Positions 1,879 to 22,967 of a DNA stretch of 64,000 nt are shown in pieces. The DNA is from an uncultured Anaeromyxobacteraceae bacterium (GTDB lineage Bacteria; Myxococcota_A; UBA9042; DTJE01). How positions within the stretch are numbered: position 1 is the first letter of the stretch; each line of letters starts with the position of its first letter. The notes beneath the pieces were generated by a model. That model was not told where the DNA came from, searched no databases, and worked only from the letters and a program-made list of their open reading frames with translations. The stretch covers positions 1,173 to 65,172 of the forward strand of contig CAYYCO010000002.1 in the NCBI GenBank assembly GCA_964470365.1. Direction: 5' to 3'. Both the position numbers and the translations under genes were made by a program.

Positions 1879-2739
1879 CTACCGTGCGGCAAGGATTACG
1901 GCGAGAGTACGCAGTTTTTCCTGGAAGAATTCGGTGGACCACAGTTTCAAACCGGGCTGTTCGATGACGTGCAGGAACGGGGCGACATCGGCGGCGGCCA
2001 CGGACCAGTCGATTGACGGGATTCTGTCATCGAGGGCGCCAATCAACCAGGCGGCGTCGACGGCCACGTTCCGACCCGACCACGGCCCGGTCTGATTCAG
2101 GGCATTCGCCAGCAGGGCCAGGTTCGGCGGCGTCCGCTCGCGGCAATACCATCCGAAATCGAACCAGTCTCTGCCCTTCAGGTACGGCCGGCACAGCAGA
2201 GCGTGCAGCTTCAGCGCGAAATTTGACGGCAGGTCCTGGGCGCAGACTTCAAAATCCAGCGGAAAGTCGACCAGCCGGAAATCCCACCCCGATCCCGCCG
2301 GCGGGTTCGTGTCGATTTCAAGCTTGACCTTATGATTCTGGCGTCGCCCCGTCCCCGCAAAGGAAAATTCGAGCTGACCGGCGATTGAATCGTCCTTGAT
2401 GAATGCCGCCCGGACGGCGGTGTCGGCACGGCTGCGATCCACGAATTCGCAATGAATCCCGTACTCGGCCAGGACGTCCAGCAGACCGGAAGAGTACGTC
2501 GACCATCCAAAAGCGGGCTGCGGTTCCCGGCAGATGAAGTCCAGGTCTTCGGAAAATCTGGGCAATCCATGCAGGATGCGCAGTGAAGTGCCGCCCTGGA
2601 ATGCCGCAACGGAAAAAAAGTCCACCCGCCACAGCGCGTATAGCACAATCGACTGTAATGTTTCTTTCAGCGCCTGCTGTTCATGGGCGGCATCCGTGGC
2701 CGCGTACCCCGCCAGTCTTTTGCGGATGATTTCAATCAT
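1879..2739 (-). CDS. abiEii: AbiEii-type nucleotidyltransferase toxin (type IV TA / abortive infection, DUF1814)
   Basis: GGTSLRILHGLPRFSEDLDF signature. 4 bp ATGA overlap with the upstream AbiEi-like gene. Confidence 0.8.
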   Translation of the reverse strand: MIEIIRKRLAGYAATDAAHEQQALKETLQSIVLYALWRVDFFSVAAFQGGTSLRILHGLPRFSEDLDFICREPQPAFGWSTYSSGLLDVLAEYGIHCEFVDRSRADTAVRAAFIKDDSIAGQLEFSFAGTGRRQNHKVKLEIDTNPPAGSGWDFRLVDFPLDFEVCAQDLPSNFALKLHALLCRPYLKGRDWFDFGWYCRERTPPNLALLANALNQTGPWSGRNVAVDAAWLIGALDDRIPSIDWSVAAADVAPFLHVIEQPGLKLWSTEFFQEKLRTLAVILAAR

Positions 2740-3395
2740 CGTCTCAAACCTGTTTCAAGAGCCTGGATGCACTGGCGCATGCGGGAATGCTGGTACGTTT
2801 CGGTCAGGCGGCGCCAGACATCGGGCCCGATCGGTTCCATGTCATCGATGTCGATTCGCATCGAGGCCAGGAAAACGGGCATTTCCGCTGGCGTCATTCC
2901 GCGGTCACAGACGATGTCGGCCATCGCGCGCGCAGGATCGGCGACAAGTGCGTACTGATCGCCAAACTGTTGCCTGTCCACGCCCTCAAGGAAACAGCCG
3001 CGCCGCAACGCCATCGGAACGAATTGGTACATACCCGCGATTTCGTGCCGCACATCCAGTGAACGGCGCCCCGGGACGACAGACAGCGTCACGTGGACGG
3101 CCTCAGGGATCAGGCCGTGCCACGCCAGCGCGGTTTCCATCGACACATACGACCCGGGAGCCAGCGCCTGCGCAATGACGAATGGATGCGGCATCTTCCC
3201 CGTCAGCATCGGCGACAACATGTAAATGCCGCGCCGCAAACGGACAAGTTCACCCGCCTTCAACGCCCGGTTGACAAGGTTGTACCGTCGCTGGGGCGAA
3301 CCCTCCAGCAGCCGGGCAACCTGGGCCTGGCCAATGACCCGTTCGCCCAGTTTCGCTTGAATCAACTTTTCGGTGAGGGTTTGCATGTAATGCAT
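2736..3395 (-). CDS. abiEi: AbiEi-family antitoxin/transcriptional regulator
   Basis: N-terminal wHTH-like region with ...LVRLRRGIYML... typical of AbiEi. Operon partner of AbiEii. The ORF track opens with TTG at 3422. The first ATGs are at 3395 and 3386, so the start is uncertain. Confidence 0.65.
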   Translation of the reverse strand: MHYMQTLTEKLIQAKLGERVIGQAQVARLLEGSPQRRYNLVNRALKAGELVRLRRGIYMLSPMLTGKMPHPFVIAQALAPGSYVSMETALAWHGLIPEAVHVTLSVVPGRRSLDVRHEIAGMYQFVPMALRRGCFLEGVDRQQFGDQYALVADPARAMADIVCDRGMTPAEMPVFLASMRIDIDDMEPIGPDVWRRLTETYQHSRMRQCIQALETGLRR

Positions 3396-3524
3396 GATAC
3401 TTTCATTTTTCGAAAGTTTCAAACATTCATGGCACCCGGGAAGCCGCGCAGTTGCGCAATGATGGGGGACTCAAGGCCGCTTTCATGCAACGCCGCGGGT
3501 GCCGACCGACGGGGCGCGCCACCA

Positions 3525-4786: not shown

Positions 4787-6865
4787 TTACGGCGCCATCC
4801 ACACCCATGCGCGATCGGAGGGCAGTTCGGCGCAGCCGCCGTCCAGGGGGGTGTCGGTTGCCAGCGCCTGGGCGGGAATGGGCCAGCCCATGGGTTCGGC
4901 GCCCGGTTCCACCTGCCATGAAAATCCCTGGGACGGCCACCAGATGACGGCCGGAGGATGCAGCCTGCGCCCGCAGCCCGGAACCGGTTCCGGGGCACAT
5001 TCGGTGGTGCCCGCCGATACGCCGGGACATTCACGGTCGCCACACGCGCCGCGCATATCCAGTGCAGCCAGGGTTCCACCGACGAACACCGCCCGGGGCG
5101 CGTCCGAGGCATCCCAGGCAATCATGTACTGGCCGGGATCGCCGGCGTCGGGGATTGCCTGCTTCAGGTAAATCGTCAGGCGTTCGCCCGCCTGGACCGG
5201 CAGCACCCGCGGCGGCGGCAGATCCAGCACCAGCCGGTGTTCGACGCCGTCCGGATCCGTCAGCAGCGTTTCCGAGGTGCCGTCCGGCAGGGTCGACTGG
5301 CCCGTCACGTCCACTTCCACCGTCACCTCGAACGTATCGGCCCGCCCGTCCCAGACAAACGAGGCATGGTCGGCCAGCGGCGTTTCGGCAAGGCAGTCCG
5401 GCAGGTCGCATTCGTACCTGTCGCAGTCGTTCGACGCCAGGCGCAACGCCCCGGCCGAAGGATCCGCCCATGACGCCAGCAGCCGGGCGGAGCCGGTCGC
5501 CGGTTCGGCGTCCAGCAGTTCGAAACCGCCGGGCCCGAGATCCCTGGCAATCAGCACATGCCCGAGGTCCGGTGCCGCCAGGACCGGGGCGCCGCCACCG
5601 GCCATGGGCGCGTCCAGGTTGCCGGACGCCGGGTCCAGTGCGCGCGCGGCCACCGGAAACCATTCCATCACGTCGGTCCCGGTGACTTCCTGGAATTCGG
5701 TCAGCATCAGCCGGCCGCCGTCGCCGGACGCGTCCAGTTCGACCGGAGTCCAGTATGGCCGGCCCGCATCACGCCAGATCGACCGTGGCGCCTGACCGGG
5801 GTCGACGCGGAACACCTCGAAGCCGCCCCAGTTATCCCCCGACACGTGCGAGGCCAGCAGCAGTACCCCGCGTGCGCCCTCCAGGGCCAGAGCACGAACC
5901 ACGGTTGACCCCGGATCCACGGTCCGCGTCACGCCATCCTCGGTGATATCGACCTTGACGCCCCCGTCGGCCCAGGTCATCAAGGCACTGGTGCGGCCAT
6001 CCCACGACAGGGAACGGAACCTTGCGGTATAAACCGACCAGCGGTCGATCCATGCGTCCGGCGAGACCTGTTCGCAACGCGCCAGGTCCAGGCGGCACAG
6101 CGCGACCGGGTTTTCCTGGTCCGTGGTCGCGTCGCGCAGGTAAACCTCGATGATGAACGAACCGTCGCCGGCACGCGCCAGCGCGTTGCCGCTGAAAAAT
6201 GCCTCCCGGCCGGCCCAGTCGTGAACCAGGGGCCGGACGACCAGCTGTCCCGCCACCAGCGACAGGACCTTCCATGTGCCGGGGGCGGCACACGTCCCGT
6301 CGTCCGCCTGCGCCCGCACCAGCACGAATCCGCCGGACTCGATGCTGTCGCAGATGGGGAACGGGATCGGCACCCCGGCCCCGTCGGCCAGGTCCGCCAG
6401 AGTCATGCGCGTATAGTCGTTTCCGTTGCGCGGCCAGGCCATCAGCAGGCCGTCACGGCCGGTGGCGAATCCCATGCCCCAGAATTCCGCCACGCCAAGA
6501 TCGGTTTCGACGCCGGCGTCCACGTCGTATGCCAGCAGGCGCTGTCCGTCCCCGTCATCCAGCGTGTACGCGATGTAACGCCCCGATGGCGATGAAGCCA
6601 GGTGCCGCAGCCCGGTCGGGCCGTCGGCCGCCGACAGGCCGGTCGTTTCATCGGACGACGCGTCGTCCAGCGGCAGGCTGGAACCGGGCAGGCGGACGCG
6701 CTGAAGGACGCCCGTGGCCGAATCGTACCTGAACAGCCGCAGGCCGTCGTGGATCCAGCCCACCGGCACGGGCCGATCGACGACCGGGGCCGGGCCGTCG
6801 CCACCCGAACAGGCGGACAGCAGGGCGAGCAAAGCCGCGATGGCCACGATTGGAACGAATTTCAC
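4787..6865 (-). CDS. Lipoprotein with TolB/PD40-like beta-propeller repeats
   Basis: GTG start with AGAGG upstream. MKFVPIVAIAALLALLSAC lipobox. Repeated ...SPSGRYIAYTLDDGDG...-type blades. Confidence 0.7.
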   Translation of the reverse strand: MKFVPIVAIAALLALLSACSGGDGPAPVVDRPVPVGWIHDGLRLFRYDSATGVLQRVRLPGSSLPLDDASSDETTGLSAADGPTGLRHLASSPSGRYIAYTLDDGDGQRLLAYDVDAGVETDLGVAEFWGMGFATGRDGLLMAWPRNGNDYTRMTLADLADGAGVPIPFPICDSIESGGFVLVRAQADDGTCAAPGTWKVLSLVAGQLVVRPLVHDWAGREAFFSGNALARAGDGSFIIEVYLRDATTDQENPVALCRLDLARCEQVSPDAWIDRWSVYTARFRSLSWDGRTSALMTWADGGVKVDITEDGVTRTVDPGSTVVRALALEGARGVLLLASHVSGDNWGGFEVFRVDPGQAPRSIWRDAGRPYWTPVELDASGDGGRLMLTEFQEVTGTDVMEWFPVAARALDPASGNLDAPMAGGGAPVLAAPDLGHVLIARDLGPGGFELLDAEPATGSARLLASWADPSAGALRLASNDCDRYECDLPDCLAETPLADHASFVWDGRADTFEVTVEVDVTGQSTLPDGTSETLLTDPDGVEHRLVLDLPPPRVLPVQAGERLTIYLKQAIPDAGDPGQYMIAWDASDAPRAVFVGGTLAALDMRGACGDRECPGVSAGTTECAPEPVPGCGRRLHPPAVIWWPSQGFSWQVEPGAEPMGWPIPAQALATDTPLDGGCAELPSDRAWVWMAP

Positions 6866-6948
6866 GACGACTTACCTCTATGCGGGCGTTCGGCGAAGGT
6901 CATTCTATGTAAAACTGTTTGGTTAATCCAATCGATGATCCGTGGCCT

Positions 6949-9288
6949 TCACGGACTTGACCACAACGCCTTCTCGCCGCTCATGCCCCCGTCAATCCGC
7001 TGTATGGGATACAAGCCGATCCGATCAGGGCTTCCGCCTGTCGCCAAATGGACGTGGTCCCTGATCAATTCCCATGCGTCGCCCCAGGGCATGAGCCTGT
7101 TCTGGTAATTCAAGCGATATTCCAGCGGTTCAATACTGTGATCCGCAAGCAGGAAGATATGCTTGAATCTGGACAGGTGACGCCGCTGCAATTCCAGCTG
7201 CTCCCGACAGGCAACCAGGTCGGCGGCGGGCGGTCTTGCGGTCGAATCGTTATCCGTAATCGCAATATTCGAGTACTTGCTGGTATTGAATCTGTCCACC
7301 AGGAGATTCTGCGCGAATTCAATACTCGTGCTGACGGGACATTGCGCGGGCCAGAGCTTTTCCACGGGGTAGACGGGGCTTTTCCCGATGATGGCGACAT
7401 ACGGCCAGTCAGCCTGATCCTGTCGATGATTAAATGCAATCACGAGGGAATCCGGAGGCGGATCGAAAGTCGAGACGCTCTTGAAGACCTCGGCAATCGG
7501 CCCCAAGCGGATTCCCGCATACTGGACCCAGCCGAAAACCAGATAGAAAGCCAGAAGGGCCAGGGCCCAGCGGTGGTTCCGGGGTCGCGCAATCCATTCG
7601 CGTATATAGGGGGCGCTGATAATCGCCATTGGAACGTACAGCATGAGCGCATAGCGCCAGAAATTCACGCCCACGGGGCTCAAGGCATTCGAGTATATGA
7701 GCAGGCAGACGATAACGATGAGCTGGTAAGCCCTGGCACGCGGCACCTGCGGATCCTTGAGGGATTTGACGAAAGCCAGCTTCTGCGGAAGAAAAGGCGG
7801 CAGGATGAGTACCGTTGCCAGGAACCATATCGGCAATTTCAGGTACCAGTACGAAACCGTGTCCCCGCCTTTGTTGGCAACCTTGCGCAGGAACGCGCCG
7901 ACCAGCGTGTCGAGATTCCCGGAAAATAACAGAATGAGCATGGCCGCCACGGCCCCCCAGAGGCCGACAATGGCGAAGGCCCGCCAACGCACCCTCCTGC
8001 GCTCGACCCCGTAGTGGCAATATGTCGCCATAAAGGCGACATAGAGTGGCGGCAGGATCATGTAGTCTTTCTTGAGCGCGACGCCCAGCGCCAGCATGAA
8101 CGCAATGGCGACGGAGGCCGCGAACTGCAGCGGCAGGCCCTTGGGCACGGCGTACACGGCCAGCAGCAGGGCCAGATAAAAAACCGGCGTGGCCAGCTGT
8201 TCCTGCACCAGGCTGCCGGCCTGTCCCGTAGTCACGGGCGACAGCAGCACGATGGCGGCGGCAATCAACGCGATGGCCCGTCTGCCATACAGCTTGAAGG
8301 CCAGCAGAAAGGCCAGCACCGGCAACAGCGCCCCCAAAGCGCGACCAGGCAGCAACAGCGCCCCGAAATGATCGCCGAACAACTGCATGGATATATGCAG
8401 CAAGCCGAAAAAGGCCCCGTCATGCTGTCCGTGCCTTGTCCAGACAAGCTGCTGCAACAGCCATGACTTTGAGTGCACGAAAAACAGCGGCGCCGCAAAC
8501 CGGCTGAGCACGCTGAACAACGCAAGCGGCGCATAATAAATGTACGCCCGGACCGGCAGAAGAAACCAGCCGAACACAAGCAGCACAACCAGACAGATGG
8601 TACCGCTGATCAGCCCGAAGCCCCACGGCACATCGGCCATGGGCAAGGCAGGAATCAAGGGTGCGTAGGGGTATTTCGACACGTCGGGGGCCTGCGGCGG
8701 CCCGTCCGGCGACGGGGGCTCCATCTGTTGCGTATCCGCCTGCGCGGGTCCGGATTCGGTCGGCAGCTTTTCATCGTCACGGGCGCTGGTTCTGACCCAC
8801 AATGCCGCCAGCCGTTCGGCCTTGTCGCCCTGAAGAAACCACGATCGCCAGGCATCCACCCCGGCAATGGATACTGCGTTGGACGAAATGCCGCCCGCAC
8901 CATCGGAAAGGCAGATCAGCAGACTCTCATTGCCGAGCACCCGACATTCGCCGGCATCCGGCGGCGCCTGCCCCGCATGGCAGATCGCGAACGAGGGCTT
9001 TTCGGACGGTCCGGTGTCCGTCGTGGTCAGCGTCAGCAAATACTTGTCGAAGGCGATGCGCACATCGACGCTGGCAAATGGCAGGCCGGTGAAGTCGGTC
9101 GGGATCAACAGGTCGGCAGCCGGCCTTTCGGCGGAGCCCGGCACGATGTAGCGGGCATCATCGTCACCCGTGTCGGGCATGCCGTTTGCAGGGCTGGCGC
9201 CGAGCAGGAACAAGCCGGTGAACACGGTCGCGACAATCACCGGTATCGTTGGGTCACGCGCAGGACGCATCGTCGTTGGCCCCGTCAT
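6949..9288 (-). CDS. Large polytopic membrane protein, GT-C-type glycosyltransferase-like (ArnT/PMT-like); family tentative
   Basis: 779 aa. N-terminal signal/exported domain, roughly 11-13 TM helices, C-terminal ~250 aa soluble domain. 4 bp overlap with the upstream rSAM gene. Confidence 0.45.
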   Translation of the reverse strand: MTGPTTMRPARDPTIPVIVATVFTGLFLLGASPANGMPDTGDDDARYIVPGSAERPAADLLIPTDFTGLPFASVDVRIAFDKYLLTLTTTDTGPSEKPSFAICHAGQAPPDAGECRVLGNESLLICLSDGAGGISSNAVSIAGVDAWRSWFLQGDKAERLAALWVRTSARDDEKLPTESGPAQADTQQMEPPSPDGPPQAPDVSKYPYAPLIPALPMADVPWGFGLISGTICLVVLLVFGWFLLPVRAYIYYAPLALFSVLSRFAAPLFFVHSKSWLLQQLVWTRHGQHDGAFFGLLHISMQLFGDHFGALLLPGRALGALLPVLAFLLAFKLYGRRAIALIAAAIVLLSPVTTGQAGSLVQEQLATPVFYLALLLAVYAVPKGLPLQFAASVAIAFMLALGVALKKDYMILPPLYVAFMATYCHYGVERRRVRWRAFAIVGLWGAVAAMLILLFSGNLDTLVGAFLRKVANKGGDTVSYWYLKLPIWFLATVLILPPFLPQKLAFVKSLKDPQVPRARAYQLIVIVCLLIYSNALSPVGVNFWRYALMLYVPMAIISAPYIREWIARPRNHRWALALLAFYLVFGWVQYAGIRLGPIAEVFKSVSTFDPPPDSLVIAFNHRQDQADWPYVAIIGKSPVYPVEKLWPAQCPVSTSIEFAQNLLVDRFNTSKYSNIAITDNDSTARPPAADLVACREQLELQRRHLSRFKHIFLLADHSIEPLEYRLNYQNRLMPWGDAWELIRDHVHLATGGSPDRIGLYPIQRIDGGMSGEKALWSSP

Positions 9289-10283
9289 CTGCCATTAAAC
9301 AATTTCTGACGCACCACATTCGCCACAGCAGAAGGGTTCAGCGCATAAAAAAGGTTGAATTCCAAACGGTTGGCGCACCAGCAATCCGCACAGGTAACTT
9401 TGCCGATCGAATCGAAGGCCGCCTGCAGCCCGACTTCGGCAGCATTCATTCCCGCTCTTGGCACACGACACCGACCACACGGGAAGACATTGCCGAGCGC
9501 GTCAATCCTGCAGGAAACCAGTCCCCCGGCACATTTGATTTCCGTCGGATCCGGCCACCGCCGCAAATGCCGCAGGCCGGCAGGCGAATTGATGATAATC
9601 CGCCTGGCATCCGAACGTTTGCGCGCAATCAATTCATCGATGGCGCGGGTGTACGCCGGTCTTGACGGGGAGAGCGAGTTGTCCAGACCGGAACCGAGCT
9701 GCAGGTGAACGGAAGGCTGAAAACCAACGGGAAGGCGGAGTTCGGAGCAGAGAGTGACCACTTCGCCGATGCGTTCGGCGTTCAATGAATTGATGGTGGC
9801 CGATGCAACGACGTGCAGGCCGCGAGCCCTGGCGGCGTCAATCGCCGAGATCACCTTGTCAAACGTGCTCCTGTGACGAATCCGGTCGTGAATATCGGCC
9901 AGCCCCTCCAGAGACACCGCGATCTGCGACAGCCCGACGATTTCGTTCAGCCGTTCCCCGAGCAGTATTCCGTTGGTGTTCAGCTTTACCAGCATGTCAT
10001 GGCCGCTCGCACGCCTGACGATTGCCGGCAGGTCCTCGCGCAGGAGCGGCTCGCCCCCGGTCAGACTGACTGCGATCGTGCCGCAGGCACGCATCTGGTC
10101 GATCAGATTCAGACACTGTTCCGTGCCCAGTTCGTCGGGAATGCGTTGCCATATGCTGCAGGACGGGCATTGCTCGTTGCAGCGTCCGGTAATGGCCCAC
10201 CCGACAATCAGAGGCCTGCGCACAGGGAGGATTTTCGAGCCCATCAGAGGCAGGGCCCTAATGGCCTTTTCAATCTTTTTCAT
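9285..10283 (-). CDS. Radical SAM enzyme with C-terminal SPASM domain (paralog B)
   Basis: CNEQCPSC (CxxxCxxC), GGEPLL, and C-terminal CAGG...C...PCGRC...CADCWC cysteine cluster. Track start is GTG at 10349. First ATG at 10283 gives an N-terminus the same length as paralog A. Confidence 0.85.
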   Translation of the reverse strand: MKKIEKAIRALPLMGSKILPVRRPLIVGWAITGRCNEQCPSCSIWQRIPDELGTEQCLNLIDQMRACGTIAVSLTGGEPLLREDLPAIVRRASGHDMLVKLNTNGILLGERLNEIVGLSQIAVSLEGLADIHDRIRHRSTFDKVISAIDAARARGLHVVASATINSLNAERIGEVVTLCSELRLPVGFQPSVHLQLGSGLDNSLSPSRPAYTRAIDELIARKRSDARRIIINSPAGLRHLRRWPDPTEIKCAGGLVSCRIDALGNVFPCGRCRVPRAGMNAAEVGLQAAFDSIGKVTCADCWCANRLEFNLFYALNPSAVANVVRQKLFNGR

Positions 10284-11277
10284 GACAATCGTTTTTTGCG
10301 GCTGCGGCTGTGCCGTTCCTGCATAACACTTTACTACCCAACGACGCACGAAACAATGAAACCGCGCCGACGGAGGCCGGCAGCAGGCGCATTATCAAGG
10401 TGACCGCCAGGGCTGACGCGAAGATGGTCGACGCCGGCCCGTCCGAGGCAAAAATCAGAAGAGCCGCGCCCTCCCTGGTTCCAAGCCCGGCAAAAGAAAG
10501 CGGCAGTGCACCGACGACGTGCAACAACAGCAGCTTGTCGAAGAAAACGCCCCCGAGCACCGGTGCAAAAAACGCCACCAGCACCGCGAAGCGCAGGAAT
10601 TCATCAATGTAAACGAGCGCCATCAGGCTGACCCTCGCGGGCACCCTCATGCCGGCGATCGCGGCCAGCGCCCCCTTCAACTGATGAATCAGTTTCCACT
10701 TTTCCGGCTCGCCCTGCCCCTGCTTGACGGCCCCGGGCATTTTGATCAGGCATAGCGCAAGGCATGTCGACAGCATGGTCAACGCGATAAGGGTCCACTG
10801 GAGCGGGGGATTGCCGTAACCGAGCAGCCCCATGCCCAGCGGCAGCAGGCCCAGCAGAGCCAGGAGTTTGTCCAGGCCCCACAGGCTGATTGACTGCCCG
10901 TTGTTCAGTCCCAGGCGCCTGCCCACGACGTAGTACGCGCCGGGATCGCCCAGGAAAAATGGAACGAACGCCTTGATAAACAGCAACAGTGCCCGATTAT
11001 CAATGAGGCGGCCGAAGCCCACAGGCACGCCGATTGCGTTCAGCAGCAGTCGATGGCGCAGGGCCCGCAGGATGAAGTTCGCCAGCACGCTGGCCAGTAT
11101 CGCGAATGCCAGCGCACGCAGGTCAACTGCCATGAGGACCGAAAATTCATCCCGCTCCCCGGCGTGAATCAGATACGCGATGCACAGGCCATACAGAACC
11201 GGCACCGGGGCCAGCTTCAAAATGAATCGGGCCCGGGGCGTCAGTCGACCGAATGAATGTTCGAGAGAAACCGGCAT
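10270..11277 (-). CDS. Flippase-like / lysylphosphatidylglycerol-synthase TM-domain family membrane protein (UPF0104)
   Basis: About 8 TM helices with a ...FAGLGTREGA... motif typical of LPG_synthase_TM. Track start is GTG at 11310. First ATG at 11277. Confidence 0.55.
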   Translation of the reverse strand: MPVSLEHSFGRLTPRARFILKLAPVPVLYGLCIAYLIHAGERDEFSVLMAVDLRALAFAILASVLANFILRALRHRLLLNAIGVPVGFGRLIDNRALLLFIKAFVPFFLGDPGAYYVVGRRLGLNNGQSISLWGLDKLLALLGLLPLGMGLLGYGNPPLQWTLIALTMLSTCLALCLIKMPGAVKQGQGEPEKWKLIHQLKGALAAIAGMRVPARVSLMALVYIDEFLRFAVLVAFFAPVLGGVFFDKLLLLHVVGALPLSFAGLGTREGAALLIFASDGPASTIFASALAVTLIMRLLPASVGAVSLFRASLGSKVLCRNGTAAAAKNDCHEKD

Positions 11278-11321
11278 GCCCACCCCGCCGGCCACGCAAG
11301 GCCGCGTCACAGAGCCATATG

Positions 11322-12752
11322 TTATTTCTTTCGCTTTCTGGTATCCGAATGGACGGCATAGACCAGCATCCGAAGGGCGGTTCGAGCGCCACGCCGGAAT
11401 TCTTCCTTCGAACGGACGCGGGAGAGCGCCCGCAGGACATACGTGGGCCGATAATAGAACCAGTAGTAGGCCATCTTAGTCCACAGTTCGATGCTGCCCT
11501 CGCTCATCTCCGTCCACGGGTTCGGCAGGCGCGCCTCCTCCGCGTTGCCAAGAATGTAATCCCGCCAGAAATCCTTTCCGGTGCGTTTGATCATTTCCGA
11601 ATCGAGATCCGTGCAGGGCTTGGCGATGGTGCGGGAGAACTGGGCGTAATCCAGATCGAGACCGGTGGCATAATCGATGGTACGCAGAAGGCTCATCGGA
11701 GTCTCGCCCGGTACACCGGTCATGAAGAATCCCAGAGCCTTGATTCCGGCCTGGCGCGTCGCACGCAGCGCCAATGAAACCTTCTTCGCATCGACCTTCT
11801 TGTTCATCAGTTTCAGATGGTCTTCCGACGAGGTTTCAATTCCGAAATATATCTTTCGGCAGCCGGCACGGGCCATCAGGTCAAGCAGATCCGGATCCAC
11901 GGCATCTATGCGCGATCGACAGGACCATTCCAGATCCATCTGCCGTTCGATAAGCCCGTTGCAGAGATCGGTGATGCGGCGCCGATTTAGAGGGAAATCG
12001 GCGTCAAAGAAGTCGATTTCCCGCACGCCGTACTTGTCGTAACACTCCTGGATCTCTTCCAGAACGCTCCCGACGCTGCGGGCGTAATACGGGATCTTCG
12101 CGATGGCACAGAATGAGCACTTGTAGGGACACCCCTTGCTGGTAAGCATGATGGTGAAATTGCGGCGCTGGGACGTGATGGAATAATAACGATCATTGGG
12201 CAGCAGATGGCGCGCCGGGAACGGAAGTTCGTCGAATTCGGACTCCGTCGCGGGCGGCGAGATCACGATGCCGCCTTCCCGGCGATAGCAGACGCCCGGA
12301 ATGCCGTCAGGCTCCGTCCCTTTTTCAAGGGCATCGATCAGAAGGGGCAGAGAGTGCAGTGCCTCGCCGGAAATCGCGTAATCAATCGCCTCGTGGGTCA
12401 TCGTTTCCCGCGGATAGAGGGACAGGTTGATTCCGCCGGCCAGAATCGTCGCGCCAAGCGCCTGACGAATCGCCGCGGCATAGGCAAGGGTGTCGTGAAA
12501 CATGTAGGTCGAAAAATAGAAACCCACGTATTTCGGGGCAAATTCGGACAGGGCGGCGATCGTTTCCGGGATGCCGAGCTTCAGTGCATTTGCGTCCAGC
12601 AGAATTACTTCGTGGCCGGCCTTTTCCGCAATCGCCGCCGCATAGGCCAGGTTGATCGGGGGAAAAACCCCGAAATCCTTGTCCACTACCAGGATGTTTT
12701 CTGAAAAACGCTTGTGTTCATAAGGGGCAAAAACAAAAGCGATGCGAGCCAT
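11322..12752 (-). CDS. B12-binding-domain radical SAM enzyme (class B rSAM)
   Basis: N-terminal Rossmann-like B12-binding region (ARIAFVFAPY...VILLDANAL), then KGCPYKCSFC radical-SAM motif and the TIM-barrel core (IYFGIETSS). Confidence 0.85.
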   Translation of the reverse strand: MARIAFVFAPYEHKRFSENILVVDKDFGVFPPINLAYAAAIAEKAGHEVILLDANALKLGIPETIAALSEFAPKYVGFYFSTYMFHDTLAYAAAIRQALGATILAGGINLSLYPRETMTHEAIDYAISGEALHSLPLLIDALEKGTEPDGIPGVCYRREGGIVISPPATESEFDELPFPARHLLPNDRYYSITSQRRNFTIMLTSKGCPYKCSFCAIAKIPYYARSVGSVLEEIQECYDKYGVREIDFFDADFPLNRRRITDLCNGLIERQMDLEWSCRSRIDAVDPDLLDLMARAGCRKIYFGIETSSEDHLKLMNKKVDAKKVSLALRATRQAGIKALGFFMTGVPGETPMSLLRTIDYATGLDLDYAQFSRTIAKPCTDLDSEMIKRTGKDFWRDYILGNAEEARLPNPWTEMSEGSIELWTKMAYYWFYYRPTYVLRALSRVRSKEEFRRGARTALRMLVYAVHSDTRKRKK

Positions 12753-12755
12753 GCG

Positions 12756-13745
12756 TTAATTCACCAGCCGCACAACGTCCGCCAGAGGCCGCGGATCAAG
12801 TGAATACAGCATGTTAAGTTCGAGCGACCCGCAGAAACCGCATCCGCTGCACGATACGGCCGGAAGTTTCCCGATTGCCTCGCCAATGCTGCTGGTACGG
12901 ATGTTCGGCAGCGGCGTCGCGTACGAGACGCGATCGCAGGGCAGAATCGTTCCGTCCGAATCGATCATTATAAATACTTTGCCGGCCGAACATTCCAGGG
13001 GAGGATAGTTGGGCCAGTCGGAGATGTATTTCAGTTCGGCCAGGGAATTTCGGATGCTCCGGTTGCCGCCGCGTTTCTGATCGGTCAGCCAGGCAACAGC
13101 GTCACGCATATCAATGGCATCCGGGGCCAGTTCCCCGACGTTTTCCACCCCACGATATAAATCTTTTACCGGTTGAAATGCCACCACGCACCCAAACCCT
13201 TCAGCAATTTCGAGGATTTGCGGCAAGTGATGAACATTGAAGCGCGTTATCGTGGTCGAAAAACTGATCTTCTTGAGCCGCCGCGAGGCCAGTTCTGCGG
13301 CTTCAATTGCGGCCGCGAAAGCACCCTTCCTGCCACGCACCAGGTCATGAATTTCTTCCGGCCCGTCCAGGCTGATCTTCAGCAGTTCCAGGCCGGCGAG
13401 CTGGTCAATCCGTTTGTGGAGCATGTAACCGCTGCTGTTCATGCTCGGCGCCAGCCCCAATTCGGCCGCGCAGGACACCAGTTCACCGATATCCTTTCGA
13501 AGCAACGGTTCGCCGCCGGAAAATGAAACGTGAACGGTGCCCAGCGATTTCAATTCTGCCAGGCCCCGCTTGATAATCTCGGTCGGAAGTTCCGAAGTTG
13601 CCGAATTTCCCCAGATGTTGCAGTAGGCGCAACGATTGATACAGCGATCCAGCAGATTCCACCGCACCGCCACCGGAACGGGCCGCCCGCCAAGACGAAC
13701 CTTCAGCAGGCAAAGACTGGCCTTGAGTTGTCGCGTGACTCTCAT
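12756..13745 (-). CDS. Radical SAM enzyme with C-terminal SPASM domain (paralog A)
   Basis: CINRCAYC, GGEPLL, and C-terminal ECSAG...PCDRV...CSGCGFCGS. An ATG also exists at 13871. The 13745 start makes its N-terminus co-linear with paralog B. Confidence 0.85.
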   Translation of the reverse strand: MRVTRQLKASLCLLKVRLGGRPVPVAVRWNLLDRCINRCAYCNIWGNSATSELPTEIIKRGLAELKSLGTVHVSFSGGEPLLRKDIGELVSCAAELGLAPSMNSSGYMLHKRIDQLAGLELLKISLDGPEEIHDLVRGRKGAFAAAIEAAELASRRLKKISFSTTITRFNVHHLPQILEIAEGFGCVVAFQPVKDLYRGVENVGELAPDAIDMRDAVAWLTDQKRGGNRSIRNSLAELKYISDWPNYPPLECSAGKVFIMIDSDGTILPCDRVSYATPLPNIRTSSIGEAIGKLPAVSCSGCGFCGSLELNMLYSLDPRPLADVVRLVN

Positions 13746-14059
13746 TACCGAATCCCGATACCGCAGCCGCCCGGCTTGATGAAGGGATGAAGAAACCCCC
13801 ACAACCCCAATTCGGCAAAGTATGCCAATACTGACCGGGTTGTCAAACCGGTCTTCTCCCGATATTCCCATCCGTCGGGGCGGTTCGGTCGACGCGGGTC
13901 GCGGGCGCGGGCTGCTGCAGGTGCTGTGAACGCTCCGGATGTGTCAGGCAAATCTCCGGTTCCGGTTTGACTTCGCCGGACTCCATGAAATAAACTTTTG
14001 TCCGGCAATTCGTCTGATTGTGACAACCGATTGCTCTGACTCATTTTCTGGCAATAAAG
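13746..14059. promoter_or_regulatory. Divergent intergenic region (probable bidirectional promoter/operator) between the rSAM operon and the nitrogenase-like operon
   Basis: 314 bp non-coding (188 bp if the rSAM starts at 13871). Contains an imperfect inverted repeat ggcaattcg...ccgattgc near 14000-14035. No sigma-70 consensus could be assigned confidently. Confidence 0.35.
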
Positions 14060-14878
14060 ATGCAGCGCGAACGGGTGGCGGTGTACGGCAAGGGAGGGGG
14101 TGGCAAGTCTTTCATTTCCGCCAACCTTTCCGTTGAATTCTCGCGCCATGGTTACAGCACCCTGCAGATCGGCTGCGACCCCAAACACGATTCGACCAGG
14201 TCACTCACTTCCGGCAAATCCATCAGGACCGCGCTTTCGTACATGGAAGAAACCGGCCGGCTTGTCGGCAACACGGAATTCGACGTTGTCCAGGGACTTG
14301 AAGGTGTTGCGTGCGTCGAAACCGGCGGGCCGGAACCGGGTGTCGGCTGCGCGGGTCGCGGGATCGTCAGCGCTTTCCAGTTTTTCAGGTCCAGGAACCT
14401 CCTGGACAGATACGACGCCGTGGTGCTTGACGTCCTGGGCGACGTCGTCTGCGGCGGATTCGCCGTGCCGATGCAGCGCGGATTCGCGGAAAAGATCGTC
14501 ATCGTCGTTTCCAATGCCCTCATGTCCATGTATGCGGCGAACAACATCGCACGTGCCCTGGTCCGGTACCGCCGAAACGGGGTATTTCTGGCCGGCATAA
14601 TCGCGAACAATCTTCGCGACGACGACGACGAACAGGAAATTCGACGTTTCGCCGAAGGGTTGAGGGCGCCGGTCATCGCCGCGTTCCGCCATGACCTTCT
14701 GGTCCGCAGGGCCGAAAGGATGGCGCTTCCGCTGCTGGTGGCATTTCCCGACTGTTCCACGGCCGGGGCCTTCCGCGGCCTGGCCGATGCGATAATCAAC
14801 GCCGGCCGGGTCGATGACTGCCCGACGCCATACAGCGAGGAAGAACTGGACTGTTTCTTCAGGAGCCTGCACGAATGA
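14060..14878 (+). CDS. NifH/BchL/CfbC-family ATPase (nitrogenase-like Fe-protein homolog)
   Basis: YGKGGGGKS P-loop, CDPKHDSTR switch I, GGPEPGVGCAGRG (Cys97 equivalent) and VLGDVVCGGFAVP (Cys132 equivalent, switch II). Confidence 0.9.
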   Translation: MQRERVAVYGKGGGGKSFISANLSVEFSRHGYSTLQIGCDPKHDSTRSLTSGKSIRTALSYMEETGRLVGNTEFDVVQGLEGVACVETGGPEPGVGCAGRGIVSAFQFFRSRNLLDRYDAVVLDVLGDVVCGGFAVPMQRGFAEKIVIVVSNALMSMYAANNIARALVRYRRNGVFLAGIIANNLRDDDDEQEIRRFAEGLRAPVIAAFRHDLLVRRAERMALPLLVAFPDCSTAGAFRGLADAIINAGRVDDCPTPYSEEELDCFFRSLHE

Positions 14879-17031
14879 AGCAGTCGCAGCATCGTGCGAT
14901 CCTTGATGAATTTTCGTTCATGGCGCGCCGTCTCGGGTTCAGAATGATGGTCCCCCGTCCCGACGGGTCCCTGTTCATTCTTGTCGAACCGGGGCGCCGG
15001 CTCCTCTGGGTTCCCGAGGCGCGGGCCGGGGATATCGTGGTCAAGGGCATCCCCGGGGGGTTTTCCGGCGACGGGATCGCGCCCGCGGATCTCGAAAACA
15101 CGACACTTCGCCTGCGCGAATCGCTCGAGAGAAAAGAACTGCCGCTTCTGACGTGGCGCACGAATACCGATGTCCCGATTGAACTGTCCAGGTGGCTGGT
15201 CGATTTCCACCTCAGTCCTTTCCTTCAGGAAGAAGTGAGCTCCTGGGGTGAATTCAGGCTGCAGAAAGTCGAGGAACTCGGGGTCGACTCGGTTGCGGTG
15301 ACGTTCCAGGCCCGCGATGCCGTTGTCGTGTGCGAGGTCCGCGCGCTTCGGCTGGTGGATGCGCTAGAACTTTCGCAGTGGCATGTCGTGAATCCGCTGG
15401 CCTGGCGCGTCACTTCCGACACGCGGCTTGATGTCGAGGGCTACAGGGCGCGGCCGGAATACTATCTGTCATATGCCCTTGTTCGAACCTTCGCCCCGGG
15501 CCAGGTGACAAGGGCATTCATTCAGCCGCCAGGCGGGGCCGCGGCCGGCGAGGCCGGCGGTGGAAAAGGATGCACGATCGCTGCCGGCGACGGCTCCGGG
15601 AAAGAGGCCCGCGACACCGTCGCACAGGGATGTTCCTGCGCTTTGCCGCCCGATCCCCGGCAGGAAGTCCCGATCGACAGATTCTTCATGCCTCCGGATT
15701 TCAACCTTCTGGGCGCAGGCGACGTCTTCAGCACCCTTAACAATGCCGGGCCTGAATTCGCGCTGCTTTTCGTTGCGCCGCGCGCCTGCCTGAAGATGCC
15801 GATGTCGGCCAGCTTCAACGCGACAACCTATCTGTGGCACCGGTACGCCAGCCTGCCCATGCAGGTTTCCCGCGCGGTCGCCGCAGTCACCACGATTGAC
15901 GAAATCGACCTGGTGATGAGCATGGAGCGCCAGGTCGTGCAGGTGCTGGACAAGTCGCTGGAGGATCCCGGGGTCAGGATCCTGGTGGTGTTCAGTTGCT
16001 GCGTTGCGGATTTTGTCGGACTTGACGTCGAAGGTATCGTCAGGGAGCGCCTTGGGGATTCGCAAATGCCGCTGATTCTCTGGGGGGCAAGCCCCTGGGG
16101 TCTCGCTTCGGTCGAGGCTTTCTGGCGCCAGGTGTTTGCCATAGCACCACGTCCCCGTTCCGGATTCAAGCCTTCAGGCGTCAACCTTGTCGGGTTCGCG
16201 CCGAATGATTCCCGCATGACGGCGGAACTTGCGCTTGATCTTGGGTCAGCAGGCATCAGGGTGAATTCCACGATGGTGCCGAGCCTTGAATACGACGCTC
16301 TTAACGCGTTCAACAACGCGGAACTCTCCGTGGTTCCGATCGACGACAGCGTCCGCCTGGAACTCGGTTCGGTCCTGGAAGAAACTACATCTCCCCCCGT
16401 TTTGAGGGTTCAAAGACCTTTCGGACTCGATGGAAGCCTGAAGTTCGTCAGGAGCGTGGCATCAACCCTGGGGGTCGCCGAGGCTCCGGGGCTGCTGGAA
16501 AGCGCCGAACGGCACAGGGCCGCCTGGGACGAATACAAAACCCTGGCCTCCGGCTGCACCGTGGCCATCCCTCTCGACATGAGGACGGCTGCCTGCATCA
16601 CCAGACCCGGTGTGCTGTACGGGATCCCGGTGGTGGATCTCATCCGGGAGATGGGTTTCCGTGTCCTGATCATCGTCAGTTACCGCCGTGAAGATGGCGA
16701 AGACGTCCGACAGGTTGTCAGGGAGATCCGCTCCCTATATCCCGAGGGTGTCGATCCCGGCATTGTCATCGAAACGGCGTCGGGCGCCGAAGCGCTTCTC
16801 GATCGACTTGCGGCGGACGACGTTTCGATGGTCATGTCGGAGTTCGCGCCGGACACGCGCGTCACGGAAATGGGAAAATTCAGTTTCGCGCCGCGGCAGC
16901 TTGAGATGGGGCTGGCGGGGGCATTGCGTTCGCAACGGCTGTTGCTGCGGATGGCCCGGTCATCGTCCGTGCTGCGTCGTTTCGACGCCGTCGCCCGGGA
17001 CGCGGTCGGCTTGCCGGGGGAGGTGGTGTAA
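14875..17031 (+). CDS. Nitrogenase component-1-like (NifD/BchN/ChlN-like) subunit with ~235 aa N-terminal extension
   Basis: ATGA overlap with the NifH-like gene. C-terminal ~480 aa carries Oxidored_nitro-like motifs: ...FVAPRACLKM (cf. ChlN GSRTCAH), ILVVFSCCVADFVGLDV (cf. ChlN LVGSCPSEVIKLD, NifD TTCTTGLIGDD) and VNLVGF...AELALDLGSAGIRVN (cf. NLIG...E..LLE.GI.VN). N-terminal 1-235 has no recognisable domain. Confidence 0.7.
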   Translation: MKQSQHRAILDEFSFMARRLGFRMMVPRPDGSLFILVEPGRRLLWVPEARAGDIVVKGIPGGFSGDGIAPADLENTTLRLRESLERKELPLLTWRTNTDVPIELSRWLVDFHLSPFLQEEVSSWGEFRLQKVEELGVDSVAVTFQARDAVVVCEVRALRLVDALELSQWHVVNPLAWRVTSDTRLDVEGYRARPEYYLSYALVRTFAPGQVTRAFIQPPGGAAAGEAGGGKGCTIAAGDGSGKEARDTVAQGCSCALPPDPRQEVPIDRFFMPPDFNLLGAGDVFSTLNNAGPEFALLFVAPRACLKMPMSASFNATTYLWHRYASLPMQVSRAVAAVTTIDEIDLVMSMERQVVQVLDKSLEDPGVRILVVFSCCVADFVGLDVEGIVRERLGDSQMPLILWGASPWGLASVEAFWRQVFAIAPRPRSGFKPSGVNLVGFAPNDSRMTAELALDLGSAGIRVNSTMVPSLEYDALNAFNNAELSVVPIDDSVRLELGSVLEETTSPPVLRVQRPFGLDGSLKFVRSVASTLGVAEAPGLLESAERHRAAWDEYKTLASGCTVAIPLDMRTAACITRPGVLYGIPVVDLIREMGFRVLIIVSYRREDGEDVRQVVREIRSLYPEGVDPGIVIETASGAEALLDRLAADDVSMVMSEFAPDTRVTEMGKFSFAPRQLEMGLAGALRSQRLLLRMARSSSVLRRFDAVARDAVGLPGEVV

Positions 17032-18276
17032 TTGAAAATCGCCCCTTACTTCCTTGACGGCTGCATCCTGACGCTTGCCGGAATGCCCGACCTGGTGTCC
17101 GTTATCGATTCTCCCCTGTGCGAACTCGAGCGGGCCTACACCCTCGATCTCGTCAGCGACGGACACGCGAGCCTTCTTGGCGGCGGCCCTTACGCGAGGG
17201 GCACGAAGCGGCTGTTCACGGTGGACTGGACCCACGGACGCGACGTCAGCGGCGTCGAGCAGAGCCTTGTCGAAAGCATCATGGCCACCGCAGCGATACA
17301 CCCCGACAAACCAATAATGGTCCTCGCCGGTTTTCTGTCGCTGCTGGTGAACACCGACATACCCGGCCTTGTCGCGGATCTGTCCAGCCGTGTCGGCAAC
17401 CCGCTCATCACGGTGAAACAGGATTCTCTGGACGATGACTGGATTGACGGGATTGCTGCCACCCAGGCAGCCGTGCGCGCCGCCATGCCCGTTTCCGGCG
17501 GCGATCCCGGAAGGCCGGTTTTCGAAGGCTACGCTTTCCTTCGACAGAGCGGCGACGAGTGGGGGGACGTGGCGGAACTTGCGGCGTTCGCCAGGTCGGT
17601 CGGCCTGCCGGACCCGATATGGCCTTTTAACGGAATCACGTCTTTTCGAACGCCGTCGCATCCGTCGGCGCCGCGCATCAGGTTCCCGTATGCGCCTGCG
17701 ACCGGGGACGGGAGGGCCGTCGATGTGCCGCTGCCGATCGGACTGGACGACACCGCGCGTTTCATTCGGGTCCTTGCGGACATCGCCGGAAATCCCGCCG
17801 CCGGCGAAGAACTGATTGAACGCGAAACCATGCGCGTGATCAGGATACTCATTCCGCGGATAACGAAGTCCTTCGCGGGCCTGGGCGCTGTCGTGGTGGC
17901 GGACCCGGCGAGGGCCAGGGGGCTGGTGCTGGCGCTTCGCGACCTGGGGATATTCACCCCGCTTGTGATTGCGCTGCGACGATCCGGCATGGGCGAGGAA
18001 GACCTGGCAGCGTGCAGGGGCCCCGGCACCACGGTGATGGTGAATCCGACCCAGCATGACGTGGAAGAAAAGTTCCATGAGGTGGCCTCGAACGGACAGG
18101 CCACCCTGATGATCGGCTCCGGGTTGACGCGGGACGCTGCCCGGAATGCCGGGCTCTCGGTGATCGAGGCGGCATATCCGTGCGTGGCCGAAACCTTTGC
18201 GGCAATGACCCCTCTGATGGGATTCAACGGTTTGCTGCACCTGGCGGATCGCATCGATTCGGCCCTGCTCAGGTGA
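17032..18276 (+). CDS. Nitrogenase component-1-like (NifK/BchB/ChlB-like) subunit
   Basis: TTG start 1 nt after the upstream stop, with GGAGGTG upstream. N-terminus MKIAPYFLDGCILTLAG...VSVIDSPLCELERAY resembles BchB/ChlB MKLAYWMYAGPAHIG...VHAIMHAPLGDDY. Rossmann-like repeats follow. Confidence 0.6.
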   Translation: MKIAPYFLDGCILTLAGMPDLVSVIDSPLCELERAYTLDLVSDGHASLLGGGPYARGTKRLFTVDWTHGRDVSGVEQSLVESIMATAAIHPDKPIMVLAGFLSLLVNTDIPGLVADLSSRVGNPLITVKQDSLDDDWIDGIAATQAAVRAAMPVSGGDPGRPVFEGYAFLRQSGDEWGDVAELAAFARSVGLPDPIWPFNGITSFRTPSHPSAPRIRFPYAPATGDGRAVDVPLPIGLDDTARFIRVLADIAGNPAAGEELIERETMRVIRILIPRITKSFAGLGAVVVADPARARGLVLALRDLGIFTPLVIALRRSGMGEEDLAACRGPGTTVMVNPTQHDVEEKFHEVASNGQATLMIGSGLTRDAARNAGLSVIEAAYPCVAETFAAMTPLMGFNGLLHLADRIDSALLR

Positions 18277-18423
18277 ATGAATCCCGATACCTCCGGCGTT
18301 ACGGCGATATTTCGATAATCCTGCCGCAGGCGGCCTCAATGGAGTCCTGATGGCCTGTCGAAACCACGGACCGAAACTGTGGACTGTCCCGTTGCAACCG
18401 TGACATAATCGAAACACTTTTTC

Positions 18424-22809: not shown

Positions 22810-22894
22810 CGAACCCACCGGGCGATCACCATCCGGCACAAACCGCTTGACAATCCCGCGCCTTTCGCAAATAATCTGTCCGCTTTTTGGCTGT

Positions 22895-22967
22895 GGGCCC
22901 ATAGCTCAATTGGTAGAGCAGCGGACTCTTAATCCGGAGGTTGGCAGTTCGATTCTGCCTGGGCTCA
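22895..22967 (+). tRNA. tRNA-Lys (anticodon CTT)
   Basis: Acceptor GGGCCCA/TGGGCTC, D-arm GCTCAATTGGTAGAGC, anticodon loop CTCTTAA (CTT), T-arm GGCAG-TTCGATT-CTGCC, discriminator A. CCA is not encoded. Confidence 0.85.

Follow-up and report, generated by a model that had tools for sequence, protein, structure and literature searches.

A packed radical-SAM operon in an uncultured Anaeromyxobacteraceae bacterium most likely acts on a lipid-linked sugar for the cell surface

Introduction

What do two related radical S-adenosylmethionine (radical-SAM) enzymes act on when no peptide substrate is visible beside their genes? The question is raised by a 64,000-nucleotide stretch of DNA from an uncultured Anaeromyxobacteraceae bacterium (the window; positions 1,173 to 65,172 of contig CAYYCO010000002.1 in GenBank assembly GCA_964470365.1). 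An initial annotation, made from the letters alone, had described two paralogous SPASM radical-SAM enzymes (here A and B) bracketing a B12-binding radical-SAM enzyme, and it held that SPASM enzymes usually modify peptides. This generalization is half true. Peptides are indeed among the substrates, but those of Twitch/SPASM enzymes extend to sugars, nucleotides, tetrapyrroles, and lipids, examples being BtrN and MoaA (PMC9012708) and Hbs (bioRxiv 10.1101/2023.10.20.563219). Here, we report that the genes belong to a larger operon that most likely acts on a lipid-linked sugar for the cell surface and not on a peptide.

Results

The cassette consists of five closely spaced minus-strand genes, running from position 13745 down to 6949 and encoding A, the B12 radical-SAM enzyme, a flippase-like membrane protein, B, and a membrane protein of 779 amino acids (aa) with a class C glycosyltransferase (GT-C) fold (Table 1). 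In transcription order, the genes are separated by gaps of 3 and 44 nucleotides (nt) and then overlap by 14 and 4 nt, and the same gene starts were called in two independent Logan assemblies of the window's population. The B12 gene does sit between the two paralogs, as annotated, but the flippase-like gene lies between them as well. The set of two paralogs plus a B12 gene was therefore incomplete, as it overlooked both the flippase-like gene and the 779-aa gene downstream. The flippase-like protein matches the Pfam family LPG_synthase_TM (PF03706) with 47.9 bits (cutoff, 33.4).

We then surveyed 14 distinct loci with an A ortholog, the window included, counting features within about 10 kb of A. 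Hosts of A relatives include members of the Omnitrophota, Elusimicrobiota, Patescibacteria, and Myxococcota. All 14 loci have at least two paralogs of the A/B type (called Twitch paralogs after their C-terminal domain, described below), and 12 have an ortholog of the B12 enzyme (36 to 69% identity) adjoining or near A, usually directly adjacent. LPG_synthase_TM proteins occur in 9 loci, DegT/DnrJ/EryC1 aminotransferases in 8, family 2 glycosyltransferases (GT2) in 7, and annotated GT-C enzymes (PMT_2, YfhO, or the 779-aa type) in 7. In six of the eight loci with DegT, its gene directly adjoins a Twitch paralog. Individual clusters are richer still in glycan genes: PMT_2 and a pair of GT2 genes occur in both L094 and L004, joined by a CmcI-type methyltransferase in the former and by a carbamoyltransferase and an asparagine-synthase-type amidotransferase in the latter; and L095 also has Wzy_C (ligase/polymerase), WbqC, and an ABC2-type exporter. 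Four Omnitrophota-type loci (L004, L013, L094, and L095) carry three or four Twitch paralogs and up to two B12 radical-SAM genes per cluster. Such expanded paralog sets suggest several successive radical steps on one product. The cassette closest to that of the window lies in L010 at 5693-9451 (A, 61 to 62% identical; B12 enzyme, 69%). Ahead of it lie several genes for transposases (DDE_Tnp_1, DDE_3, and DUF4096), an arrangement consistent with mobility of the cassette.

Gene fusions provide a physical link between the radical-SAM enzymes and lipid-linked sugar synthesis. In L014, from an Elusimicrobiales metagenome-assembled genome (MAG), the B12 radical-SAM enzyme carries an ArnC/AglJ/PpgS-like GT2 domain as a C-terminal fusion, and a second, uninterrupted open reading frame (ORF) joins a GT2 domain, a hydrophobic linker, and a radical-SAM domain. 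In L008 (10987-12417), a fusion joins LPG_synthase_TM with a class I SAM methyltransferase; in NCBIfam, the latter matches the DVU_1556 family best. The best matches of the L004 GT2 genes and of the fused L014 domain are ArnC, AglJ, PgfS, and PpgS, all of which are polyprenyl-phosphate sugar synthases.

To look for a peptide substrate, we compared all ORFs of 18 to 110 aa from 11 loci, all against all. No small ORF outside the large genes was conserved between any two of these loci; every cross-locus match was an alternative frame within one of the large genes (radical-SAM, B12, or other). The earlier impression that no precursor peptide is visible was thus borne out. The 65-aa ORF at 13939-14136, previously noted as looking spurious, exists and overlaps the start of the NifH-like gene, and it has no counterpart in any related locus. 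A PqqD-like domain was found neither by Pfam in the window genes nor as a gene in the related neighborhoods. In the AlphaFold2 (AF2) model of A (predicted local distance difference test [pLDDT] score of 89), a single helix (residues 3 to 19) precedes the radical-SAM barrel, the first strand of which begins at residue 26, so the protein would have no room for a PqqD-like recognition domain. Both hallmarks of a maturase of peptides that are made on the ribosome and modified after translation (RiPPs), a precursor gene and a fused or adjacent PqqD-like domain, are thus missing here. Peptidases and peptide exporters do not recur in the cassette neighborhoods, where the conserved neighbors are GT2, PMT_2, YfhO, other GT-C enzymes, DegT, Wzy_C, the ABC2 exporter, and LPG_synthase_TM. 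With no small ORF, no PqqD domain, and glycan or lipid genes as neighbors, a nonpeptide substrate, which the initial annotation had raised as an option, is the most likely one.

The 779-aa protein had no Pfam match even at an E value of <5, and a sequence-profile search of the PDB with alignment A2 was empty. It comprises a signal anchor, a beta-rich periplasmic domain, about 10 transmembrane (TM) helices, and a C-terminal periplasmic domain; the insertion of the beta-rich domain after the first TM helix is unusual. When the AF2 model (pLDDT, 80) was compared with the PDB by Foldseek, the top 25 matches were all GT-C enzymes (E values from 1.8e-6; probability of 1.00 for the first 15), among them AglB, ArnT, PglB, STT3, ALG9/12, AftA, EmbA/B, Pmt4, and DPY19. 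The model thus indicates a GT-C fold as a class and no specific family, as the TM-scores were low. ArnT, PglB, STT3, and PMT, which share this polytopic fold, use a lipid-phosphate-linked sugar donor, and the 779-aa protein may do so too. Two of 18 members of the family match Pfam PMT_2 (8.7e-8). The family is very small, with 21 relatives among 1.84 billion representative proteins in a full HMMER scan, and a word-indexed protein search returned essentially only the query itself. In L003 and L010, an ortholog adjoins the cassette.

BLASTP aligned A with B at 31% identity over 304 residues (E value of 3e-48), and the two are collinear from residue 24 through the C terminus. Their description as paralogs with colinear N termini was correct, and the N termini quoted for them match both ORFs. 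Their resemblance greatly exceeds chance, but the duplication is ancient: A orthologs from other phyla are closer to A (41 to 63% identity) than B is. In a tree of the paralogs, three clades were resolved. Clade A pairs with the B12 enzyme, whereas clade B holds the window's B together with L010_x2 (52% identity) and L007_x2 (43%) and lies directly 3' of the flippase-like gene in the window and in L010. The third clade adjoins DegT and is missing from the window.

Both paralogs match Pfam Radical_SAM (A, 74.4 bits; B, 77 bits), and A has its CX3CX2C cluster motif at C35, C39, and C42. The SPASM label proved too strong. The canonical SPASM motif (CX9-15GX4C ... CX2CX5CX3C ... C) supplies seven cysteines as ligands for two auxiliary Fe-S clusters. 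The C-terminal cysteines of A are spaced Cx17Cx28Cx2Cx2C and those of B Cx6Cx10Cx2Cx25Cx2Cx1C. With Pfam SPASM (PF13186), A scored 20.4 bits, under the cutoff of 21.5, and B had no match. In 42 A orthologs, the invariant cysteines are C35/C39/C42 followed by C252, C270, C299, and C302, with C305 present in at least 90%. The same four C-terminal positions, C252 to C302, are the only ones common to 26 paralogs from 11 loci, which have four to eight C-terminal cysteines in total. The CX2CX5CX3C block and the final distal cysteine occur in none of the 42 orthologs and 26 paralogs. The SPASM domain is defined by two auxiliary clusters (PMC9012708), whereas the Twitch domain, its truncated form, is a short C-terminal unit of beta-hairpin and helix whose cysteines suffice for one such cluster. 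An invariant CX17C...CX2C within a C-terminal domain of about 80 residues, modeled as a hairpin (residues 258 to 268) followed by helices, fits a truncated, Twitch-like domain rather than a canonical SPASM domain. Judging from the cysteine pattern, the seven C-terminal cysteines of B may accommodate a second auxiliary cluster.

We judged membership in NCBIfam families by the curated cutoffs, and no model reached its cutoff for A, B, or the B12 enzyme. The best match of both paralogs was the PTO1314 family (TIGR03961), with 101 bits for A and 98 bits for B against a cutoff of 306. Characterized subfamilies scored lower, with PqqE (92 bits; cutoff, 381), NirJ (87; 515), MftC (83; 265), and AhbD (76; 500) for A and AhbC (94; 650), HpnH (71; 225), and Tes (56.5; 450) for B; SkfB, MoaA, and BlsE likewise stayed under their curated cutoffs. 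Strong membership in a characterized SPASM subfamily, anSME for example, had been named as the outcome that would speak against the first description; the highest score obtained, about 100 bits against 306, belongs to PTO1314. A sequence-profile search of the PDB with A ranked SkfB, PqqE, CteB, viperins, and BlsE, and Foldseek with the model of A placed SkfB at the top of a mixed list with TM-scores near 0.65. BtrN was absent from the sequence matches and from the top 50 fold matches. A is therefore a member of the SPASM/Twitch class whose type of substrate is not discriminated by sequence or fold searches.

Among the candidates scored, 708 homologs of A were found at E values of <1e-10, and those with a host name come mostly from Omnitrophota, Elusimicrobiota, and Patescibacteria MAGs. 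The closest relatives (52 to 63% identity) include a Myxococcota protein, in keeping with the composition of the window and with its genes for TamB, Omp85, and cysteine-rich secreted proteins. Plasmid records held no close relative; all matches there were <31% identical and mostly PqqE. Collection scans with alignments A1 and A3 were dominated by the generic SGGEPLLRxD pattern, mostly of the PqqE type, and added about seven true family loci. The family of A is common in uncultured bacteria and is uncharacterized.

The middle gene was rightly called a B12 radical-SAM enzyme. Its product has a B12-binding domain (PF02310; 55.5 bits, cutoff of 32.1; residues 22 to 135) followed by a radical-SAM core (PF04055; 84.9 bits; residues 204 to 361), the arrangement of cobalamin-dependent radical-SAM enzymes. 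The best NCBIfam match is HpnJ (TIGR03471), with 135.8 bits against a cutoff of 577.6, followed at similar scores by ApyD, BzaD, PhpK, and BchE; as several models score alike, this list assigns no reaction. The best PDB match is AprD4, from apramycin biosynthesis. The enzyme may methylate or rearrange its substrate, two activities between which its sequence does not distinguish.

Upstream of A, a divergent intergenic region separates the cassette from NifH-, D-, and K-like genes. The NifH-like protein has typical cluster-ligand motifs and an odd P-loop, GKGGGGKS, and it stays under the NCBIfam cutoffs (CfbC, 256 versus 402; NifH, 249 versus 394). The D-like protein (718 aa) has an N-terminal extension of about 300 aa, and the K-like protein has 414 aa. 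A word-indexed search of 5.8 billion proteins gave one weak relative of the D-like protein, and JGI metagenome contigs gave none. By tblastn, no NifH/D/K-like gene was found within 10 kb in the 13 other distinct cassette loci, so that the cassette and nitrogenase-like genes co-occur in 1 of 14 loci, the window itself. Among 175 fetched loci, such genes were confined to the window's own population (L001 and L002) and one unrelated weak match (L093). The adjacency is real, as it is seen in the window and in these two Logan assemblies, yet it is not conserved. A link to the nitrogenase-like genes is not supported by co-occurrence, and neither is cofactor maturation, one of the earlier suggestions.

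The intergenic region holds one promoter-like site in each direction, TTGACA-16-CATACT on the minus strand (13846-13819; 10 of 12 matches; upstream of A's shorter start) and TTGACT-18-TAAACT on the plus strand (13967-13996). Across the whole scanned region, counts of such sites showed no excess over shuffled controls. An Rfam scan of the window gave three tRNAs only and no riboswitch, for cobalamin or otherwise. The cassette, the nitrogenase-like genes, and a 294-aa ORF (together, 6949-19308) have a GC content at third codon positions (GC3) of 0.65 to 0.76, compared with 0.79 to 0.86 in the rest of the window, and this low-GC3 region lies between tRNA-Arg (95-172) and tRNA-Lys (22894-22971). 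Because of the shared low GC3 and the position between two tRNA genes, the cassette and the nitrogenase-like operon may have been acquired by horizontal transfer. No integrase was seen in the low-GC3 region, and attachment-site repeats were not searched for.

The 294-aa protein (18424-19308, plus strand) directly follows the nitrogenase-like genes, and next to it is a cysteine-rich protein of 516 aa with a hydrophobic, signal-like N terminus (19319-20869, plus strand); neither has a Pfam or NCBIfam match. Downstream of the cassette lies a gene for a predicted lipoprotein of 692 aa, whose membership in the cassette is doubtful. It has no Pfam family and no counterpart among the related loci, and its GC3 of 0.82 is like that of the flanking genome and unlike that of the cassette. 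This lipoprotein could be either an acceptor or unrelated. Elsewhere, the window encodes an AbiEi/AbiEii toxin-antitoxin pair (1879-3422, minus strand), TamB, Omp85, and cysteine-rich secreted proteins.

Table 1. Coordinates of the operon, its surroundings, and the fusion ORFs of a related locus (window positions unless an accession is given)
Feature	Position	Strand	Remarks
Radical-SAM paralog A	12756-13745	-	329 aa; first operon gene
B12-binding radical-SAM enzyme	11322-12752	-	476 aa; start 3 nt past A stop
LPG_synthase_TM flippase-like membrane protein	10270-11277	-	335 aa from ATG at 11277; alternative GTG at 11310
Radical-SAM paralog B	9285-10283	-	332 aa; start overlaps stop of flippase-like gene by 14 nt
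Polytopic membrane protein, modeled GT-C fold	6949-9288	-	779 aa; start overlaps B stop by 4 nt
Predicted lipoprotein, signal sequence and LLSAC lipobox	4787-6865	-	692 aa; 83 nt downstream of GT-C gene
Divergent intergenic region, cassette/NifH-like gene	13746-14059	.	314 bp; one promoter-like site each way
NifH-, D-, and K-like genes	14060-18276	+	Divergent from cassette
L014 fusion ORFs	7821-10004 and 5197-7824		JAQTZB010000010.1

Discussion

We favor, with moderate confidence, the view that the operon encodes a membrane-associated pathway that tailors a lipid-carried sugar, most likely a polyprenyl-phosphate sugar, and exports the product and attaches it to an acceptor beyond the cytoplasmic membrane. 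In its favor stand the close packing of the genes, the glycan and lipid genes conserved around related cassettes, the fusions, the polyprenyl-phosphate type of the GT2 genes, the GT-C fold of the 779-aa protein, the adjacency of DegT to Twitch paralogs, and the lack of a recognition domain, a conserved small ORF, and a peptidase. In the order of steps that we infer, a GT2 polyprenyl-phosphate glycosyltransferase, present in related loci and supplied here from outside the window, would load the sugar onto the lipid. A and B would then each abstract a hydrogen from a sugar C-H on the cytoplasmic face, in steps such as oxidation, epimerization, or deoxygenation, and the electron would pass to the one auxiliary cluster, which is ligated by cysteines. 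The B12 enzyme would add a methyl group at an unactivated carbon or rearrange the ring. The LPG_synthase_TM protein would hold or flip the lipid-linked product, and the GT-C enzyme would pass it to a periplasmic or surface acceptor. The pairing of Twitch paralogs with DegT in related loci parallels the action of BtrN followed by transamination and suggests that at least some paralogs oxidize a sugar hydroxyl.

Several points weigh against this reading. GT2 and DegT genes are found nowhere in the 64-kb window, so the first step must be encoded elsewhere, and the operon has no gene for sugar-nucleotide synthesis. The neighborhood evidence does not separate a lipid-linked donor from a glycolipid head group. 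Sequence and fold searches with A mix enzymes of the peptide type (SkfB, PqqE, SuiB, and anSME) with BlsE, viperin, DesII, and MoaA. The NCBIfam flippase-like model (TIGR00374) gives the candidate flippase only 18 bits against a cutoff of 43.2, and to our knowledge, flipping by LPG_synthase_TM proteins is established for MprF only. The Foldseek TM-scores of the 779-aa model to GT-C enzymes, although its matches are uniform, are 0.3 to 0.5.

The main rival explanation, which we hold to be unlikely, is that the operon remodels a membrane lipid or its sugar head group. The head group might be handled as by HpnI/J/K/L or contracted to a cyclitol by the B12 enzyme, in the manner of calditol synthase, or alkyl chains might be bridged and methylated as by Hbs-Hgm. 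HpnJ is indeed the best NCBIfam match of the B12 enzyme, B matches HpnH and Tes among others, and the flippase-like protein shares its Pfam family with HpnL. The GT2, B12 radical-SAM, and LPG_synthase_TM genes of L008 mirror hpnI-J-L (PMC13459092), and a cluster of SPASM/Twitch and B12 radical-SAM genes acting on lipids has a precedent in Hbs-Hgm (bioRxiv 10.1101/2023.10.20.563219). These scores, however, lie far under their cutoffs (HpnJ, 136 of 578; HpnH, 71 of 225; Tes, 56 of 450), and no gene for squalene-hopene cyclase, Tes, Mss, or ether-lipid synthesis appeared in Pfam scans of the window's main ORFs or in the gene tables of related loci. The defining features of Hbs, a COG4001 domain at the N terminus and a SPASM domain with seven or eight cysteines, are absent from A and B, and the GT-C transferase, Wzy_C, and ABC2 exporter point to glycan transfer rather than to a finished lipid. 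We rejected identification of the B12 enzyme as HpnJ (135.8 versus 577.6 bits, with no shc or hpn core genes in Pfam scans of the window's main ORFs), of B as HpnH (on its score), and of the cassette enzymes as Hbs/Hgm (on the two missing domains). Alternatively, the cassette might work with the divergent nitrogenase-like genes, either by maturing a metal cluster or cofactor or with both operons acting on one substrate. The two operons share the 314-bp divergent region with promoter-like sites facing both ways, a lower GC3 than the flanking genes, and their adjacency in L001 and L002 besides the window, and NifB, the builder of the nitrogenase cofactor, is itself a radical-SAM enzyme. This idea is nevertheless improbable, as the 13 other loci have no NifH-, D-, or K-like match, and the cassette functions without these genes, given that the D-like protein is a near-orphan whereas A has more than 700 homologs. 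NifB-type maturation was rejected as well: the best 25 NCBIfam matches listed for A and for B include no NifB model, and co-occurrence is limited to the window.

It is similarly improbable that A and B are RiPP- or anSME-like maturases of a peptide or protein encoded elsewhere in the genome. Their closest solved relatives by profile are SkfB, PqqE, and CteB, SkfB is the top Foldseek match, and many peptide maturases are among the weak NCBIfam matches; yet no curated maturase model comes near its cutoff, A has neither a PqqD-like domain nor an N-terminal extension for one, no small ORF is conserved in the 11 loci, and the conserved partners are glycan genes, with no recurring peptidase or peptide exporter. 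We give very little credence to a diffusible aminocyclitol- or aminoglycoside-like metabolite made by the logic of butirosin or gentamicin, with a radical-SAM dehydrogenase, DegT, a B12 C-methyltransferase, and glycosyltransferases. The adjacency of Twitch paralogs and DegT in six of eight loci would suit such a route, as would the presence of a B12 radical-SAM enzyme with AprD4 as its best PDB match and the fact that BtrN is a Twitch enzyme that oxidizes an aminocyclitol (PMC9012708). However, no locus has a sugar-phosphate cyclase or other cyclitol-forming enzyme, the window has no DegT, the hosts are mostly small-genome uncultured lineages, and the integral-membrane GT-C enzyme, together with Wzy_C, PMT_2, and the flippase-like protein, points to a surface pathway of the lipid-linked kind.

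Returning to the tailoring of lipid-linked sugars, it is possible, although we offer this tentatively, that radical-SAM enzymes serve a widespread and undescribed branch of envelope-glycan biosynthesis in lineages that are anaerobic and for the most part uncultured (Omnitrophota, Elusimicrobiota, Patescibacteria, DPANN-type archaea, and some Myxococcota). C-methylated, keto/amino, or carbocyclic sugars would be made on the polyprenyl carrier before flipping and GT-C transfer, with Twitch paralogs and a dedicated B12 partner jointly replacing NAD-dependent sugar-nucleotide enzymes. The searchable literature on PTO1314, on a flippase role of HpnL, and on undecaprenyl-linked glycan clusters with radical-SAM enzymes yielded no description of this cassette. 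If the proposal is true, hundreds of genomes of little-known phyla use, for their surface sugars, a radical chemistry undescribed for envelope glycans, lipid-linked glycosylation gains a new enzyme class, and the many unannotated entries named "radical SAM protein" gain a biological context. The modified sugars might also serve as chemical markers of these organisms. The practical gain is modest pending identification of the product. For annotation, the lesson is that a SPASM/Twitch gene without a visible peptide is not automatically a RiPP maturase with a hidden precursor.

Comparison with known systems

By curated models, the nearest family is PTO1314 (TIGR03961). Its model, of the same length (332 positions), ranks first with A as well as with B, and the alignments run over the full length. 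The scores of 101 and 98 bits fall well short of 306, and PTO1314 is itself an uncharacterized family of unknown function. The SPASM maturases (PqqE, MftC, SkfB, AlbA, and anSME) resemble A and B in their radical-SAM core and in the opening half of the C-terminal motif, CX12GX4C and then CX2C, and include the closest solved structures; the cassette differs in having no recognition domain, no peptide, and no CX2CX5CX3C, with scores below a third of the cutoffs.

Other systems show what radical enzymes of these classes do to nonpeptide substrates. BtrN, of butirosin biosynthesis, is a Twitch enzyme with a single auxiliary cluster held by four cysteine ligands, and it oxidizes a secondary alcohol of a cyclitol prior to transamination (PMC9012708). 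The cassette family resembles it in that a paralog adjoins a DegT aminotransferase, but there is no detectable sequence match or top-50 fold match, the window has no aminotransferase, and the context of the cassette is membrane bound. In Hbs-Hgm, which makes archaeal H-shaped glycerol dialkyl glycerol tetraether (H-GDGT) lipids, Hbs has a COG4001 N-terminal domain and seven or eight C-terminal cysteines (bioRxiv 10.1101/2023.10.20.563219). As in the cassette, a SPASM/Twitch-class gene is clustered with a B12 radical-SAM gene, and the substrate of Hbs-Hgm is a nonpeptide membrane compound; A and B, however, have neither the COG4001 domain nor the cysteine-rich SPASM domain, and no Tes or Mss genes are near the cassette. 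The hopanoid side-chain module comprises HpnI (GT2), HpnJ (B12 radical-SAM), HpnK, and HpnL (LPG_synthase_TM), and the archaeal calditol synthase Cds (Saci_1489) contracts a sugar head group to a cyclitol (PMC13459092). The Hpn module and the cassette family cluster the same three protein classes, and both would represent radical remodeling of a lipid-attached sugar. Differences are that the cassette is without hopanoid core genes and an HpnK-type deacetylase and has Twitch paralogs and a GT-C enzyme in addition.

The overall plan resembles that of the three-component lipid-linked glycosylation systems. These are represented by ArnC/ArnD/ArnEF/ArnT, by GtrA/GtrB with a Gtr-type transferase, and by CsbB/GtcA/YfhO. 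As in these systems, a polyprenyl-phosphate GT2 (in related loci only), a putative small flippase-type membrane protein, and a GT-C transferase would act together, and within the Arn pathway, ArnD also modifies the lipid-linked sugar before flipping. The cassette deviates in that its flippase candidate is of the LPG_synthase_TM type and not GtrA, ArnEF, or GtcA, and that the window's operon has no GT2 and draws its GT-C enzyme from a very small family; the related cassettes do have an ArnC-, AglJ-, or PpgS-like GT2, in one case fused to the B12 enzyme. We know of no three-component system that contains radical-SAM or B12 radical-SAM enzymes. This radical-SAM version is uncharacterized, and its components are of known classes arranged in the overall logic of lipid-linked glycosylation.

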